Origin: a phage
Strand: one strand, 5' to 3'
Sequence record: OZ346151.1
Length of the DNA stretch: 64,000 nucleotides
The notes under the pieces were generated by a model. The model was not told the origin of the DNA. It made no database searches and saw only the letters and a program-made list of their open reading frames with translations. Shown here piece after piece: positions 3,948 through 40,085 of this stretch (position 1 is the first letter of the stretch; each line of letters begins with the position of its first letter). The position numbers and the translations under genes are program-made.

Positions 3948-4789
3948 AAATAACATTGTGGCTTCGTGCAGTGATGCACGTCGAAAACCTCTTTAATTGA
4001 CGGGAAGGCTAAGTTGACTTTTACACCTAAACATGGTAAAAGCTCAATATGCTAATCCGCAGCGAAGACTAAAGGGGTGTAGTTAAAATGGCTAGATCAG
4101 TTGAGTATCACGGATATACCGTGTTTGATGATGGAACAATACCTTTATCGAAACGTGATCATACAACAATGTTTTGTTTTGATAATGGTCGAGGTTACCT
4201 TTGCGTAACCATGTTCATCGAGGGGAAGCAGTGCACAAAAGGTGTCCACCACTTGGTTGCTGAATGCTTTGTATCAAACCCTGATCCTGAAAGGCTCACA
4301 TGGGTGAACCATAAGGACGGAAACAAATACAACAATGCATACTGGAACCTTGAATGGACCACCCCTGGTGGAAATATCAAACACGCTTATGATAATGACC
4401 TCAGAGTAAGGCCAGTCGGTGAGTATAATGCCAACGCTGTACTGACCGAGGATGAGGTAACGGAGATTTGCGAACTGTTACAAAGTGGTTTACGACAATG
4501 CGAGATTAGGGATCTTGGGTATCCTTATGAGACGGTCAGAGCCATAAAGCAAAGAAGACAGTGGAAACATATCTCTAAAAACTACACCTGGTAGTAACGT
4601 TCAGAGACTATCGAAAGCATAGCGCCAACATAAATTGGTGCGAAGAAGCGAGTAGAGTAGACCAGCAAGTGCGGTCGAAATGGGAGGTGCCTTGGTAACA
4701 AGGTAGTGAGATAGTCCGATCCATACAGGAAACTGTATGGCTGTGCACGTAATGGTGCGGGGTAGCTTAACGACCTACCTGAACTATTG
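3948..4789 (+). mobile_element. putative group I self-splicing intron in DNA polymerase gene, carrying HNH homing endonuclease ORF
   Basis: Exon 1 ends ...YYH after a U (3947); downstream frame resumes DEYQLQV...GRNWGDCH, restoring motif C (YHDE) and the family A C-terminus; possible P1 pairing exon CCAU with intron GUGG (3958-3961); G at 4789 precedes exon 2; boundaries +/- a few nt. Confidence 0.65.
4088..4594 (+). CDS. HNH homing endonuclease (intron-encoded)
   Basis: HNH motif ...VNHKDGNKYNNAYWNLEWTTPGGNIKH; own start and stop inside the polymerase interruption. Confidence 0.8.
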   Translation: MARSVEYHGYTVFDDGTIPLSKRDHTTMFCFDNGRGYLCVTMFIEGKQCTKGVHHLVAECFVSNPDPERLTWVNHKDGNKYNNAYWNLEWTTPGGNIKHAYDNDLRVRPVGEYNANAVLTEDEVTEICELLQSGLRQCEIRDLGYPYETVRAIKQRRQWKHISKNYTW

Positions 4790-20424: not shown

Positions 20425-20604
20425 ATGGCTATTATTGCAAAGACCGAGATCGTAGGCTTAGATTCTATTCTCCTCGCATATGAGGAAGCTATAGAAATGT
20501 ATGTGGTTTCCTATGGTGAGTATATCCGTGAATATGAATCTATTGATCTAGCTTTTGAATGTTATATTCGCCAGGTTAATAAAGCGTACGATGATTATCG
20601 TTAA
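20425..20604 (+). CDS. hypothetical small protein (59 aa)
   Basis: SD AAGAGGAT before ATG 20425; below the 60-aa ORF-track threshold. Confidence 0.45.
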   Translation: MAIIAKTEIVGLDSILLAYEEAIEMYVVSYGEYIREYESIDLAFECYIRQVNKAYDDYR

Positions 20605-20610
20605 AATAGT

Positions 20611-20643
20611 TTGACAACAAACAACCATCTAACAAAGCATAAT
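20611..20643 (+). promoter_or_regulatory. possible promoter (weak -10)
   Basis: TTGACA at 20611; -10 assignment ambiguous; leader hairpin 20651-20671. Confidence 0.35.
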
Positions 20644-20695
20644 ACATAAGGTGGTAGAATGATCCGCCACCCGGAACAAAGAAGAGGTAAACACC

Positions 20696-20941
20696 ATGAA
20701 AAGCAATAAAGGTTATAACGGTTACAAAAACAAAACTCATTGGAATGTAAGCCTTTGGATTAATAACGATGAGTCATTGTACCGGTTGGCCCAAGGATTT
20801 ATTAACGCTAATGCTAATCGTAATGATGCGGCGCGGGATATGATGCTTTTTCTGGAGCTAACCGGACAAGATAAGACCCCGGACGGCTTCAAGTACAGCA
20901 CTACGGCGATCCGTGCCGCGATGGTTGGAATGAAACACTAA
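20696..20941 (+). CDS. hypothetical protein
   Basis: SD GAAGAGG before ATG. Confidence 0.5.
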   Translation: MKSNKGYNGYKNKTHWNVSLWINNDESLYRLAQGFINANANRNDAARDMMLFLELTGQDKTPDGFKYSTTAIRAAMVGMKH

Positions 20942-20949
20942 AAGCACAT

Positions 20950-22980
20950 AGCCGCCAGATCTCAGAATTTACGTACGCTCACCAGTCTATAGCCTGCTAA
21001 GTATTTATTCCAACCATAGAATAACGGAATAGTCAATACCTGCATAAAATAATTATTCGTGTAAACTGCATAACATAAATCGGCTAGGATGTCAACATTT
21101 TTCGTAAACAGCTCGAAATTATAACGGTGAGTTATAATAAACAGAGAAATCTTTAGTCGTCTAATGTTTACTGTACATTACTATACTGACTGGAATCATT
21201 AGATGACTAAGAGAAAGATAAGAAATCATTAACAATGCAATTGTTTTATTCGTAACAATAAGGCAACTATGCAAACGGATGGCATGGCGCGACGGAGTCG
21301 CGACATAATATAAAAGCAGTAACCATCACCCCCGTGATAGTTTGTCTGCAAACTATTAATCAGATCATAGTTGCCTTGTATTTAGTTAATCATGACATAA
21401 CAAGCAAGGCAACTATAGATCTGCTAATAGTTGCCCTGCTTTTATATTATGTCATAGATTATTAGCCTGTTAATTGTTAGTCAGTCAAATCAACAACGTT
21501 ATCATTTCAGTCTTTATTGTTGTTGATCGTTATTGTTATCATGCAAACGAATGGCATGGCTTATCATTTTTGAGTAAACAATCTATACGTGAACAGTGAG
21601 GCATGCAATAGTAAGGGCGGGAATAATGAGAGTGTAAACTGTCAAGGGTAATGTCAATTATATCAATCGTGTCAGTTATGTCACCATTATGTCAGCAGAG
21701 TTTTTCTCCTCTTTGTCAAGTGCTGCATGCCCACACAAATAGTAAGAAATATAATTGTTATGTGCGTAAACAGTAACTCATGTTATCAATCCCTGTATGT
21801 ATCGCCAGTGGTGCGCATAATGGGTATTATGTTAAATTGCCCGTAATGATAATGGTTCTCACAATGATAGGTATTCTCATTCCCCCACACAAAATAGATT
21901 GCAAATGTTGTGCCACTATGTGAACGGCCTCACCTATTAATTTGCCTCACTGCCTCGATATTTGAGAATTATCATAAGAATGAGAAGTATTCCCATTTCG
22001 TCCGCCTGGCAGCACTCCAGTCGCTACGGCTCAGAACAGGGCAGAATTGTGTCCATTCAGATATTTCTGTCTGGCTCTTCAGGTCTGTGTGGGAAAAGTC
22101 CACCTCTCTGGCGGGGCATGGGGTCATGACGGGAAAATTGCAGGTCAATTAAAAAATTTACGTGGTGTATGAAGCGCTCTTCAGGTAAGGCATGTATTAT
22201 GGGATGAAACCCTCTTCAGGCAATGATATTTGTGGGTGTGATATTTGCTGGAAAGCCAGATATGACGGGACTCCCGGCGGGGCAGGGGTAGTACAGACAG
22301 GGGAAATATGGAGGATGTGGTTAGGTGAATTGATCAGACAGGTAGAGTATGGAATATGTTACAGGTATGTTAAATAGGGCGGCTGAATATCTGTAGGATT
22401 TGTGTGTAAAATCAAAGACTTAAGTGGTGTTGTGGTATTTTCTATAAATAATTCAAGTTTAATAGGTAATATTTGTCTCTATTCGCTTTGTGTGGTAAAC
22501 AGATTCAGATGAGATTGGTTTACAAGCGTATACATAATATACAAATTAAAGATACAAGAAACCCCCCTCCCCCTTCGGCTACCATTCACCTTTTCCTCTG
22601 ACTGGTACTTAAACACTTATTCAGACTCTTCAGGTTATCACCCATATATCATATGGCAGTGACTGGTGTCCTCCGGCCCCTCTTTCGTCACCCGTCCGCT
22701 TCGCCATGCTAATGCCATAGCCAATGGTTCGGTTGTTCACCCTGTTCACTCAGGTGTATCTCCATACCCCTTCAAAACGAAGAGAACAGAAAACCCGAAT
22801 TACTCGGTAAAAGAAAAGAGAAGAACTTAATTTTATCAGGATAGGCAAGAATGTCAAGGCATGACTGCTCACTAAACAAGCAAACAGTCATGTGTGGGAG
22901 GTAAGTGATTGTGGTGGTAGGAAATTTAGTTGAAAGATGTGTTATAGGTGCTTCCAGCACTTTAGCCGGGCAGCTAATTG
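20950..22980. repeat. ~2 kb non-coding, repeat-rich zone at the convergence of the plus and minus transcription blocks
   Basis: No RBS-supported ORFs; 20-bp near-identical repeat ATGCAAACG(G/A)ATGGCATGGC at 21268 and 21540; AAGGCAACTAT/ATAGTTGCC inverted copies 21258-21440; clustered TGTCA and CTCTTCAGG repeats. Confidence 0.6.
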
Positions 22981-22984
22981 TGTG

Positions 22985-23200
22985 TCAGTCCAGCGGTTCA
23001 TCCTCTACTTCACTGAAATCAATGTTCATGGTCTCTTCCCAACCATCGATCTCAGCACAAGAGTGGAGTTCTTTAGGGTTTACTCCTAAAGCCTCAGCAA
23101 CAGAGTCTATATTTAACACCTCTGGCAGGTATGATTCATCAAATTCAAGGTAAATCAGGCCACGAGTGTTGTCAGCTCCACCAAATATTTCTATCTTCAT
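22985..23200 (-). CDS. hypothetical acidic small protein
   Basis: Strand-consistent ORF, last gene of the minus block. Confidence 0.45.
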   Translation of the reverse strand: MKIEIFGGADNTRGLIYLEFDESYLPEVLNIDSVAEALGVNPKELHSCAEIDGWEETMNIDFSEVEDEPLD

Positions 23201-23321
23201 AAAATCTCCTCTGGAAATGAGAGTGTGAACAGGGTTTTATACGTCCCAATGCACAGGAATTATGCACGTTTTCCTCTTCAGGCCATGCTTTAGCATGAGG
23301 AACCTGTGTGGGCTCGGTGCT

Positions 23322-23534
23322 TCATAGTCTACCACCTCTGAACTCTTCGTGCTCAGGCATAATAGAGAACCAGATATCTACGATGTCCTCCCACGTCAGG
23401 TCATCAGCCTCAGGATCTGTCTGGGACGAAGATGAAGAGTCCTCAGAATCTAAGTTTTCCTCTTTAACTGGCTCATCCAAGGGACATATGGTCACTCCTT
23501 CGGATGTCTCTTCAGATGCATGTGTGTTGATCAT
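23322..23534 (-). CDS. hypothetical acidic small protein
   Basis: Strand-consistent ORF. Confidence 0.45.
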   Translation of the reverse strand: MINTHASEETSEGVTICPLDEPVKEENLDSEDSSSSSQTDPEADDLTWEDIVDIWFSIMPEHEEFRGGRL

Positions 23535-23894
23535 GTTCCACCCGTGAGTATTCCGGCAACAGCTGCTATGGACGTAATGATCATCAGGATCACCACTAAA
23601 ACTTCGGACAATGTTCTCATTGTGTACTCCATATTCTACAAACTATGTGTGGATACTATCACTGGATCGGTAATGTGTCAACAGAAACGCCGCGAGGGTT
23701 TGGTTAAAATCCGAGCGTATGGTGATTTGGGTCAAAACGGACGTGCGTTCTCGCTACGCTCGAAAGAGAGATTTGTTTGTAGGAAGCTCTTAAACGCTCT
23801 GTAATGAGATTATCTGTCCAAGGTATGCAATCGTGCACCAGATAAAGAAAAGGACGCCACAGAGCGTCCTAGGTGTCTTAAATTTGATATTTTG

Positions 23895-24206
23895 CTATAC
23901 CCATGAGGGCTTATCAAGGTTGGAGTAGCTGAAAGGTGTCAAAAGGTGACTGTCAAAATCTCTCAAACTATCTAAATCTTTTTCCTCGTCCTGACACCAT
24001 CTGTGCCTACATTTATTGTTGTAGTGCATAGAATGCATAGCGTTCTGCAACTTAACAGGTACAAGTGATTCAGGAGTAGATAGTATTGTTGGGTATGCCA
24101 GAATCACCTCAAACAGTGGAAACACATCGAAACTAAAGTCTACCTCTGCAGAGGTTGATGGCATATAGGAGTATTTAGCCGCCTTTGTAGACATAATCCA
24201 CCTCAC
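23895..24206 (-). CDS. hypothetical protein
   Basis: Strand-consistent ORF. Confidence 0.5.
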   Translation of the reverse strand: MRWIMSTKAAKYSYMPSTSAEVDFSFDVFPLFEVILAYPTILSTPESLVPVKLQNAMHSMHYNNKCRHRWCQDEEKDLDSLRDFDSHLLTPFSYSNLDKPSWV

Positions 24207-24529
24207 ACAGGTTTGATAATACCTTTACCGAATAATTCTTCGTATCTAATCTTATCCGGATCCCACTCTTGGATAATTTCGAAGACAATATCCAACCCAG
24301 GGATAATCACTTCTCCAGTGTCAAGTTTGGCAAGAACAAAACCAGAAGGCTGAATGGTTTCCCAGTTGCGCCGATTGGAATAGAAGACCTCGAAAATATC
24401 GCCGACCTTTATCTGTTGATCAAGATGTTCAAGATTCTCTTTCATATAGACGCAGCGGATTTTTCGTGCAGGCCATAGACCACCTGCATCACGTTCATTT
24501 AGCTCTTTTACAGTAATCGGTATACCCAT
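24203..24529 (-). CDS. hypothetical protein
   Basis: Coupled to downstream gene (overlap). Confidence 0.5.
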   Translation of the reverse strand: MGIPITVKELNERDAGGLWPARKIRCVYMKENLEHLDQQIKVGDIFEVFYSNRRNWETIQPSGFVLAKLDTGEVIIPGLDIVFEIIQEWDPDKIRYEELFGKGIIKPV

Positions 24530-24584: not shown

Positions 24585-24890
24585 TCATTCTACAGAGCGT
24601 TTGAACAGAATGTCTGCCTCAGACATGTGCTCAACCTCTTCTTCGATTTTAGCGCGACGTTTTTCAGCCTCATAGCGAATATCGAACTCGGTAGCCACCA
24701 GAGATTTGATGAATTTAGGAGAATACAGGTGATCCTGCTTCTCAACGAGAATGATATCCTTAATGGCATCTTTCAGATCTTTAATCTGAAGTTGGAGTTC
24801 TACCAGTTCTTCGATTGTTTTGCGAAGGCGATCACGCTCTGCAGTGTCAGAAGGAAGAGAGGTGAACAGTTCAACTTTAGATTTAGCCAT
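24585..24890 (-). CDS. hypothetical protein (helical, charged)
   Basis: Strand-consistent ORF followed by terminator. Confidence 0.5.
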   Translation of the reverse strand: MAKSKVELFTSLPSDTAERDRLRKTIEELVELQLQIKDLKDAIKDIILVEKQDHLYSPKFIKSLVATEFDIRYEAEKRRAKIEEEVEHMSEADILFKRSVE

Positions 24891-38813: not shown

Positions 38814-40085
38814 TCAGCAACCACAACTTCCGTAGTGCTTAACTCGCTCGATAACTTCCGCTTGCTTACCTTTATTGTAAGGACGGGAGTTAGGACTGGA
38901 AAGGTATCCAGACACACGTCGAATTACACTGATCGTTCCCTCTTCATGGTTTCCACACTCTGGGCATACAAAGCCTTTAGCTGTTGCACTGAACTCACCA
39001 GAGAAACCACACTTGAGACATTTATCCACAGGTTGGTTAATACCAAAATACATAATGTGTTTATACCCGAAGTCAACAAGAGCCTCTAAAGCATCCAGGT
39101 TGTTTTTCAGGTTAGGTGTTTCTACGTATCCGATGTTGCCACCAGAGGATATCATAGCAAAACCTTCTTCATACTCCCACTTATCAAAAGGAGAGCTATT
39201 GATCCATACTGGCTGATGGAAACTGTTGGTGAGATATTCATGCTCGTGCTTCAACACTTCAGGATATTCACGATCCAGACAGGTTGCAGCTTTATAGCAT
39301 AGACTCTCAGAAGGGGTGCCGTACAAACTAAACGCTAGTCTACTTTTCTTCTTGTATCGCTCACAAGCATCTCTCATGTGCTGAAGTATTCCAAGAGCTA
39401 AAGCCTTGTCACCCTCTCTGCCCAAAATCTGACAGGTTTCATACACACCAATATACCCAATACTGATGGAAGCGTACCCGTCATAGAAGAGTTTATCAAT
39501 ACTCTCTTCAGGATCCAGGCGAGCAAGAGCGCCTTCACACCACATGATAGGGTTCTGCCCTGCCTTAGTGCCTTTCAGACGGTTAACCCTTACAAGGTGA
39601 GCTTCATATGCCAAATCCAGATACTCGTCAAGAACGGAAAAGAAATCAACACCTTCCGTCTTAGCTTTTGCCGCAATCATTGGCAGGTTAAGACTAACAA
39701 CACCCAAGTTGAATCTGCCGAGGTATTTCTCCTCACCTGTTTCCAAGTCATTGTATTTGCTAAGAAAACTCCGGCAACCCATGCTCGTTACTTTACCATC
39801 TGTCGAGCCTGTCACTTTACGATTTAGTGGAACAGAAACAAAGTCAGGATAAATCCGCTCTGCAGAGCATTCCAGAGCTAATCGTTTCAAATCATAGTTA
39901 GGATCTCCAGGGTTCATGTTGACACCCTCTTCTAGGAAGAACAACACTTTAGGGAACACAGGTGTGATACGTTCTTCACCAAGACCCATTTTGTGGACTT
40001 TCAAGTAGTTTTTGGTAATCATTCTACCAAAGACTGAGGTGTCCAGACCTAAACTTAATGTGATGAATGGAGTCTGCTGTCTCCT
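38814..40085 (-). CDS. nrdD: anaerobic ribonucleotide reductase NrdD, exon 2 (C-terminal part)
   Basis: Glycyl-radical motif RRVSGYL; zinc ribbon CLKCGF...CPECG; similarity to remembered E. coli NrdD (QTPF..LG.DTS) begins upstream of first ATG, implying splicing. Confidence 0.8.
   Translation of the reverse strand, partial: RRQQTPFITLSLGLDTSVFGRMITKNYLKVHKMGLGEERITPVFPKVLFFLEEGVNMNPGDPNYDLKRLALECSAERIYPDFVSVPLNRKVTGSTDGKVTSMGCRSFLSKYNDLETGEEKYLGRFNLGVVSLNLPMIAAKAKTEGVDFFSVLDEYLDLAYEAHLVRVNRLKGTKAGQNPIMWCEGALARLDPEESIDKLFYDGYASISIGYIGVYETCQILGREGDKALALGILQHMRDACERYKKKSRLAFSLYGTPSESLCYKAATCLDREYPEVLKHEHEYLTNSFHQPVWINSSPFDKWEYEEGFAMISSGGNIGYVETPNLKNNLDALEALVDFGYKHIMYFGINQPVDKCLKCGFSGEFSATAKGFVCPECGNHEEGTISVIRRVSGYLSSPNSRPYNKGKQAEVIERVKHYGSCGC

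Follow-up and report, generated by a model that had tools for sequence, protein, structure and literature searches.

A conserved, strand-specific 9-nt box on one flank of the terminal repeat in rV5-like phages

What is a single 9-nt word doing, repeated several times, in a stretch of phage DNA without annotated genes? We explored this question in 64,000 nucleotides of DNA (sequence record OZ346151.1; this whole 64-kb stretch is called the window below) from an rV5-like Escherichia phage of the genus Vequintavirus, which is 93–96% identical to rV5 and its relatives. An initial annotation, made from the letters of the window alone, had noted five copies of the 9-mer CTCTTCAGG in a zone of gene convergence and proposed that they may be the recognition element of a phage-specific factor. 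The cluster sits in a ~2.6-kb stretch without annotated genes, between rV5 genes 163 and 164. In the rV5 genome paper this stretch was drawn as a 'non-coding' box, a change in GC skew was noted, and no terminators were found in it despite the convergent transcription (PMC3606486). A search of the available literature returned no description of the repeated word, nor any account of what the 'non-coding' region of rV5 is.

All five copies are present, with starts at 22075, 22177, 22212, 22626 and 23274 (0–6 nt from the positions first given), within 1.2 kb. The window as a whole holds seven exact copies of CTCTTCAGG, all on the plus strand, against a mean of 0.52 in dinucleotide-preserving shuffles; none of the 100 shuffles reached seven. 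The count, which the initial annotation had left to be established, is above the expectation from base composition. The remaining two copies, at 39504 and 47801, are distant from the cluster and lie antisense within long minus-strand genes. Since the 7-mer CCTGAAG has a general sense-strand bias in such genes (12 vs 2), we take these two copies as coding background. Within 20950–23350, where the G+C content of the zone is 40–48%, CTCTTCAGG is the sole 9-mer with at least three occurrences. Successive copies in the cluster are 102, 35, 414 and 648 nt apart, and a 35-nt tandem duplication includes copies 2 and 3. A one-mismatch copy, CTCTTCAGA, lies at 23508–23516 inside a 70-aa minus-strand gene; it is probably not functional, because five of its nine columns vary among relatives.

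The convergence zone is, judged by sequence matches, the physical end of the genome, with the terminal repeat inside it. Terminal redundancies of 458 bp were described for the vequintaviruses EdH4 and HdK5 by Korf et al. (PMC6563267), and the first 459 nt of the EdH4 record are identical to its last 459 nt. BLAST of this 459-bp repeat places the equivalent direct terminal repeat at 21695–22006 of the window. The boundary on the motif side maps between 22006 and 22007, so that copy 1 begins at a distance of 69 nt from it. Measured from the boundary, the EdH4 copies are at +68, +151, +186, +600 and +1247, in a single orientation, and the other side of the repeat has none. Four further records, from different laboratories, end near window positions ~21540–21600, as computed from match coordinates. 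The ~150 nt that follow 21729 (21729/21730) are present in 15 of 15 relatives and absent from the repeat equivalent of this phage, whose repeat would therefore be ~312 nt, not 459.

The same arrangement is seen outside the genus. In the Klebsiella phage KPP-1 (Mydovirus), a 514-bp repeat was identified via coverage and PhageTerm, with T7-type packaging (PMC9862379), and there too the gene blocks on either side converge on a zone with few genes that contains the repeat. Along the direction of the gene block, and with a slash at the boundary, the motif-side sequence is ...GTGCTGCCA/GGCGGAC in Vequintavirus, ...GGTGCTA/GACGGAC in KPP-1 and ...TGTTA/GACGGAC in Seunavirus. The repeat boundary on this side is homologous across the three genera, with TGCYA/GRCGGAC as its conserved word. 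Some vequintavirus papers report circular permutation or headful packaging, in conflict with the reports of terminal repeats. Transposase libraries obscure phage termini, and we weighted the repeat data above these papers because at least one of them used such libraries.

The neighbouring gene block indicates which strand to read. KPP-1 and rV5 share the gene order of rV5 genes 82–163 (RNA ligase, Sir2, ligase, exonuclease, ThyX, Nrd, PhoH, ClpP, methylase); small open reading frames (ORFs) follow the methylase, and then comes the repeat. This block corresponds to the minus strand of the window. On that strand, the sense strand of the genes running toward the repeat, the motif reads CCTGAAGAG, the reverse complement of CTCTTCAGG, and we refer to it in this form as the box. 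The sense strand of the KPP-1 block also reads CCTGAAGAG, and four of the seven copies in the KPP-1 genome lie in the 4 kb that end at the repeat.

We compared the corresponding loci of three Seunavirus phages, Salmonella KE22, Cronobacter GAP31 and Enterobacter EC152. The form CCTGAAG[A/T]G occurs on the sense strand three times in KPP-1, five times in KE22, four times in GAP31 and twice in EC152, where 0.02–0.04 are expected, and on the antisense strand once, never, once and never, respectively. The sense copies of Seunavirus are all upstream of the repeat-equivalent. A pattern that spans the box variants is CCTGAAGNG. Comparison of the KPP-1 locus with the window by tblastx found no protein homology among the flanking proteins, and a 71-aa flanking protein that we considered as a cross-genus anchor proved to be restricted to Vequintavirus. 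Since the box recurs in Mydovirus and Seunavirus though the neighbouring proteins are non-homologous, it extends across the subfamily and is linked to a single flank of the repeat. Its reach is the last ~1.3 kb of the block before the boundary, and up to ~4 kb in KPP-1. The copy closest to the boundary is ~63 nt away in KE22, and in GAP31 a one-mismatch copy stands at that distance; in KPP-1 and EC152 the 300 nt next to the boundary contain no copy. A second cross-genus landmark is the C-rich minus-strand word CCCCTGCCCCGCCGGGAG at 22271–22282; Seunavirus has a similar word, CCCCCnCCCCCGnnnGGAGG, in the corresponding position ahead of the repeat (2610 in L169, 2815 in L170 and 2628 in L171, our labels for these loci).

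Next, we asked how well the box is conserved within the genus. The gene-free DNA is 87–97% identical across ~120 vequintavirus genomes, and we aligned the zone with MAFFT from 14, later 16, genomes; a search of IMG/VR for more vequintavirus sequences gave one contig only. The alignment is a mosaic of an indel-rich part (21450–21700), indel hot spots and an ultra-conserved block of 380 nt. Copies 1, 3 and 4 are unchanged in 16 of 16 genomes, and point changes affect copy 2 in three genomes and copy 5 in one. Across the 16 genomes, 3 of 45 motif columns are variable, versus 27 of 150 columns of flanking sequence, taken 15 nt to each side (p = 0.047). When the ultra-conserved block is excluded, the difference is larger: 3 of 36 motif columns vary, while the remainder of the zone has 248 variable columns out of 683 (p = 0.0002). 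The bases directly adjoining the box vary freely.

The five copies, all on the minus strand, lie in different surroundings. Copy 1 (22075–22083) is the one nearest the repeat. Indel hot spots at ~22022 and 22128–22141 flank it, and ten genomes carry a deletion of 14–15 nt at these hot spots. Copy 2 (22177–22185), the tandem duplicate of copy 3, is the least conserved and is without a −10-like hexamer downstream. Copy 3 (22212–22220) overlaps the −35 and spacer of a sigma70-like site, TTGCCT-16-CATAAT, which runs from 22223 to 22196 on the minus strand, scores 9/12 in our promoter scan and is aimed at the terminal repeat; its −10-like hexamer CATAAT (22196–22201) lies 10 nt downstream of the copy. 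Copy 4 (22626–22634) is within the ultra-conserved block. Copy 5 (23274–23282) occupies the intergenic gap between the minus-strand genes 23534–23322 and 23200–22985. Downstream of it by 9 nt is another minus-strand CATAAT (23259–23264), followed by the ribosome-binding site and ATG of the 71-aa gene; the −35 is poor and the promoter scan made no call. The −10 past copies 3 and 5 drifts between CATAAT and TATAAT (for copy 3 also AATAAT), while bases 5' of the box vary. A near-consensus sigma70 promoter, TTGACA-16-TAAAAT with a TG, lies on the minus strand at 22830–22857, ~190 nt upstream of copy 4. It is identical in 10 of the 16 genomes; in the other six the spacer differs, and one of these (L008) also has TTAACA in the −35. 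Since this promoter fires toward the repeat, the entry of polymerase into the junction has to be reckoned with.

Outside Vequintavirus, recognisable elements of several kinds carry the box. Element 1 consists of AAGGGAGCCT-GAAG-AGGCTCCTTT followed by TCTTTT at a gene end, and is terminator-like (fold z = −2.98). Element 2, TTGACCTGAAG(A/T)GTCA...TATACT, lies ~30–40 nt upstream of a KPP-1 gene and has a sigma70-like score of 10/12. Element 3, AGGGTTGAC-CTGAAGA-GTCAGCCCT...TATTCT/TATGCT, lies 11–34 nt past the last gene of the block and is called both promoter-like and terminator-like. The promoter scan of these genera gave TTGACC-17-TATACT and TTGACC-17-TATTCT/TATGCT, in which the box spans roughly −31 to −23. 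The elements of KPP-1 and GAP31, which score 9–10/12 as sigma70-like, have the anatomy of a promoter with a stem-loop, and both phages have a terminator and then a promoter, each with a box, between two genes. In most vequintaviruses copy 1 reads GACCTGAAGAGTCAGCC, which identifies it as the orthologue of element 3 (GGGTTGACCTGAAGAGTCAGCCC of Mydovirus and Seunavirus). It no longer has the stem of element 3, its −35 is without the TTG, and it has lost a good −10. Conservation of the box thus exceeds that of the promoter hexamers. The initial annotation had set the motif apart from the sigma70-like promoters; this separation is not complete, as the minus-strand copies 3 and 5 and the orthologues in other genera overlap the −35 or spacer of such promoters.

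No terminator-like site overlaps any copy in the window and no hairpin is centred on the copies. The five copies have five different predicted structural contexts and no fold common to all, so that the linear word is the shared feature, rather than a fold or a complete promoter. The box is also not a genome-wide promoter class. The complete rV5 genome has nine copies, five in the zone and four in coding sequence near the Markov-predicted frequency, and none is upstream of late genes, which removes the suggestion of a middle or late promoter class. A scan of rV5 for a box-like site with a −10-like hexamer at the right distance found only the two in the zone, and the 25 annotated rV5 promoters that we examined are canonical TTGACA-N17-TAtaaT, all without the box. 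At copies 3 and 5 the geometry resembles a MotA box, with the word at roughly −31 to −23, a −10 ~10 nt further on and a dispensable canonical −35. The MotA-dependent promoters of T4, in contrast, number dozens, genome-wide and upstream of middle genes, and our box is absent elsewhere in the genome as a promoter element. The T4 late-transcription proteins gp33, gp45 and gp55 have no homologues in rV5, according to its genome paper (PMC3606486).

Taken together, the box is a cis-element that is specific to one strand and limited in position to one side of the terminal repeat. It is under purifying selection, it recurs across genera, and a subset of the copies keeps a register of 9–10 nt to −10-like hexamers. 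The recognition element first proposed thus survives in part: the word is over-represented, read from one strand, more conserved than its surroundings and present at the homologous place in other genera. We infer that a protein binds the box and that its purpose is to control transcription into the repeat. A sequence-specific protein, encoded by the phage or possibly by the host, would bind CCTGAAGAG and, once bound, would gate the RNA polymerase traffic heading into the terminal repeat. The box could serve as an operator where it overlaps the −35 or spacer of promoters aimed at the repeat, as at copies 3 and 5 and in the TTGACCTGAAGAGTCA...TATACT elements elsewhere, and as a roadblock or anchor at the remaining copies. 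The copies are redundant and can be lost individually, and by analogy with T7 the control of junction transcription could be tied to the processing of the ends. We tentatively favour this redundant, protein-bound gate on transcription toward the genome end, because the box overlaps the −35 or spacer at a fixed register, outlasts the promoters, is redundant and is confined to the flank. The absence of a common fold favours recognition of the linear sequence.

Several observations weigh against such a gate. Promoter scan and alignment gave no convincing −10 at copies 1, 2 and 4, so that there is nothing obvious to regulate at these copies. The irregular spacing of the copies, 35–648 nt, is unlike that of classic operator arrays. 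Two of the recurrent elements in the other genera are strong hairpins with T-rich tails right after genes, and these could explain the conservation without a protein. The only nearby candidate for binding is a 101-aa phrog_639 'transcriptional regulator' at 24585–24890 on the minus strand of the window, 1.3 kb away, with a sub-threshold GapR-like match; its KPP-1 homologue (58% identity, 80525–80821) is 35 kb from the KPP-1 repeat, and we found no link between this protein and the box. The literature search found nothing on the region, the motif, or vequintavirus transcripts or binding. The terminal repeat of this phage, finally, was placed by homology to EdH4 and KPP-1.

Among the alternatives, the one that fares best, and that we consider possible if unlikely, is that the copies are relics or members of promoter-early stem-loop (PeSL)-like cassettes, small regulatory units on either side of ORFan genes at the end of the block, in which the 9-mer would be the core, the tip of a stem-loop over the −35. 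Vequintavirus would have lost the genes between cassettes, leaving fragments of ordinary promoters and terminators, and no protein would read the 9-mer. PeSLs of T4-type phages (Arbiol et al. 2010, PMC2839356; Comeau et al. 2014, PMC4122927) are short conserved intergenic elements, a sigma70 promoter with a stem-loop possibly over the −35, found among small ORFan genes in hyperplastic regions and linked to indels. The elements of Mydovirus and Seunavirus fit this description: element 3 has both promoter and terminator character just past the last gene of the block, and KPP-1 and GAP31 have the box-bearing terminator and promoter between genes. Indel hot spots and the tandem duplication adjoin copies 1–3. 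PeSLs are, however, genome-wide (~50 per genome), whereas the box keeps to the DNA ahead of one repeat boundary and is lacking from the many early promoters of rV5. PeSLs conserve promoter hexamers and G/C stems; what is conserved here is a 9-nt loop or spacer word, and most Vequintavirus copies lack both a stem and a good −10. A stem-loop of cassette grade is missing from every copy in the window, and copies 1, 2 and 4 are without a −10. The invariance of copies 1 and 4 while their flanks vary is unexpected of decaying relics, and a 9-nt core is too short for homologous recombination.

We regard it as rather unlikely that the box is a packaging or end-formation signal, that is, a set of sites for terminase or an accessory protein that mark the cut or packaging side of the junction. 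The one-sided, one-orientation cluster would suit such a signal, as would the distance of the nearest copy from the boundary (69 nt in Vequintavirus, ~63 nt in KE22 and in the one-mismatch copy of GAP31), the homology of the boundary sequence across genera and the T7-style packaging of KPP-1 (PMC9862379). In passages of PMC3276506 that deal with T3 and T7, packaging specificity is placed within 5% of the termini, and work cited there is reported to show that a polymerase pause at the concatemer junction initiates maturation and packaging. Against this reading, KPP-1 and EC152 lack a copy close to the boundary, copies reach 1.3–4 kb away, into coding sequence or gene ends, and copy number and positions differ between genera. 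Many copies also coincide with transcription signals, which is not required of a pure packaging signal. Known terminase arrays, such as the R sites of lambda cosB and the hexamers of P1 pac, share the feature of several short asymmetric copies on one side of a cut site. They lie within ~100–150 bp of the cut at fixed positions, whereas the box copies are spread over at least 1.2 kb and are not fixed in position across genera.

Comparison with T7 and T3 also bears on our favoured gate. The likeness extends to a short direct terminal repeat with a conserved non-coding flank, to promoters directed at the repeat and to short repeated words; T7-type DNA polymerase and primase-helicase are found in both, and T7-type packaging is reported for KPP-1. 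T7 has the phiOR and pacB signals, and short repeat arrays beside its repeat. The differences are that the word is another one and that Vequintavirinae use the host polymerase. Because the host polymerase is used, Vequintavirinae have no phage RNA polymerase promoter or class II pause signal. A specific and bolder version of the gate, which strikes us as improbable, would have a dedicated Vequintavirinae protein form, on one flank of the repeat, a polar multi-site gate that couples transcription by the host polymerase to duplication or cutting of the repeat and the start of packaging. Such a gate would be the host-polymerase counterpart, in large myoviruses, of the T7 junction pause.

There is a slim chance that the signal acts in RNA, with CCUGAAGAG, in sense transcripts of the distal block and in non-coding RNA from run-through, serving as the site for an RNA-binding protein, an endonuclease or pairing with a small RNA. 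Every clustered copy is on the strand transcribed toward the repeat, and the core C-U-[GAAG]-A-G can cap a hairpin, as it does in two strong hairpins of the other genera. The five window copies, however, have their five separate contexts, in the promoter-type elements the box is upstream of the start site, and no RNA complementary to it is known. No known structured RNA was found in the window at the Rfam gathering score, and a search of 20500–24500 with permissive filters gave nothing relevant at E ≤ 5. A large structured RNA over the zone or the ultra-conserved block was rejected on folding against shuffles of both strands (z = −1.0, +0.1, +1.0 and +1.35). The minus-strand word resembles the hammerhead core CUGANGA, with no model match and no consistent stems; as a mimic of a tRNA anticodon loop (CUGAAGA) it fails too, since ARAGORN finds no tRNA and the flanks are unpaired.

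The plus-strand reading, a phage-specific promoter, processing site or translation-start element in which CTCTTCAGG is followed by ATG, we consider very improbable. The initial annotation had described an ATG within 10 nt of each copy. An ATG does follow copies 2, 3 and 5, at 2–6 nt, and does not follow copies 1 and 4. Since no conserved ORFs start there, we regard the plus strand and its ATG as incidental and the minus strand, CCTGAAGAG, as the informative one. A single ORF of appreciable size opens at these ATGs (22192–22377, 61 aa), and 1-nt indels break its frame in most relatives; the other frames that open after a copy have 2 and 21 codons. Small protein genes at these sites were rejected on this ground and because the tiny ORFs of different gene callers are mutually inconsistent. 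Nor does AGG serve as a ribosome-binding element, as its spacing is wrong at copies 3 and 5. The plus strand is antisense to the neighbouring genes, there is no genome-wide promoter class, and the other genera carry the box on the sense strand of the block, that is, the minus strand of the window.

That the copies arose by chance, or are a neutral leftover of local duplications, as the tandem origin of copies 2 and 3 and the changes in copy 2 in three of 16 genomes might suggest, is scarcely credible given the shuffles, the conservation above the flanks and the independent recurrence in three other phage lineages at 50–100 times expectation. We also considered and rejected replication-origin iterons, which are evenly spaced direct repeats of ~17–22 bp beside an AT-rich region. 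Here the repeated unit spans 9 nt and no consensus extends beyond it, the spacing is irregular and there is no AT-rich partner. Two scans of IMG/VR did not help. One for paired copies gave at least 120 matches, mostly coding repeats at multiples of 3, and was uninformative; one for an extended 17-mer gave 26 matches, close to the estimated chance level.

The region has further features of its own. The ultra-conserved non-coding block that holds copy 4 spans 22556–22935 (380 nt) and is 98–99.7% identical among 14 genomes whose divergence elsewhere reaches 13%. Within it lie an 8-bp hairpin, CATGACTG...CAGTCATG (22861–22893), and a minus-strand G5AG6 run (22575–22564); the block gave no Rfam match and no excess of folding energy. 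Near copy 5, rV5 ORF 163 (282 nt, with a GTG 6 nt after the copy; window 23200–23267) arises from a 1-nt indel in a T run, and the other genomes, including this phage, support a 216-nt gene with its ATG at 23200 over this ORF.

Other sequences of note surround the terminal repeat. In seven genomes, 51 nt rich in hairpins are inserted at a distance of 16 nt from the repeat boundary. Ahead of the far boundary of the repeat, at 21641–21694, there are five TGTCA words, the last two of which form TTATGTCA with an 11-nt period and terminate exactly at the mapped cut; these may be a second boundary-specific repeat family. In the KPP-1 locus (L020), TTATCATTTG occurs three times in one orientation, at 4057, 4509 and 4653, the first 27 nt past the other repeat boundary, and an inverted 9-nt partial copy, AAATGATAA, lies at 4497. 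At 21250–21455 of the window, four copies of ATAGTTGCC/GGCAACTAT, alternating in orientation, stand between the arms of a perfect 18-nt inverted repeat, GACATAATATAAAAGCAG / CTGCTTTTATATTATGTC. This nested symmetric element is well conserved (~90% or more) and may be an operator, an origin or a cruciform site.

The 'non-coding' box of rV5 has been left unexplained since the genome paper, and can now be placed as the genome end with the terminal repeat inside. On one flank of that repeat the 9-nt box is the most conserved repeated feature, and it is akin to cis-elements already known from phages, of the end-proximal or the cassette type. It provides a landmark by which Vequintavirinae genome records can be oriented and started. 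Phages of the rV5 type find wide use in the typing and biocontrol of E. coli O157. If the box is indeed a protein-binding gate, be it of transcription or of end processing, it would offer a handle on DNA maturation in myoviruses with short terminal repeats, and would mark a region to leave intact when rV5-like phages are engineered.

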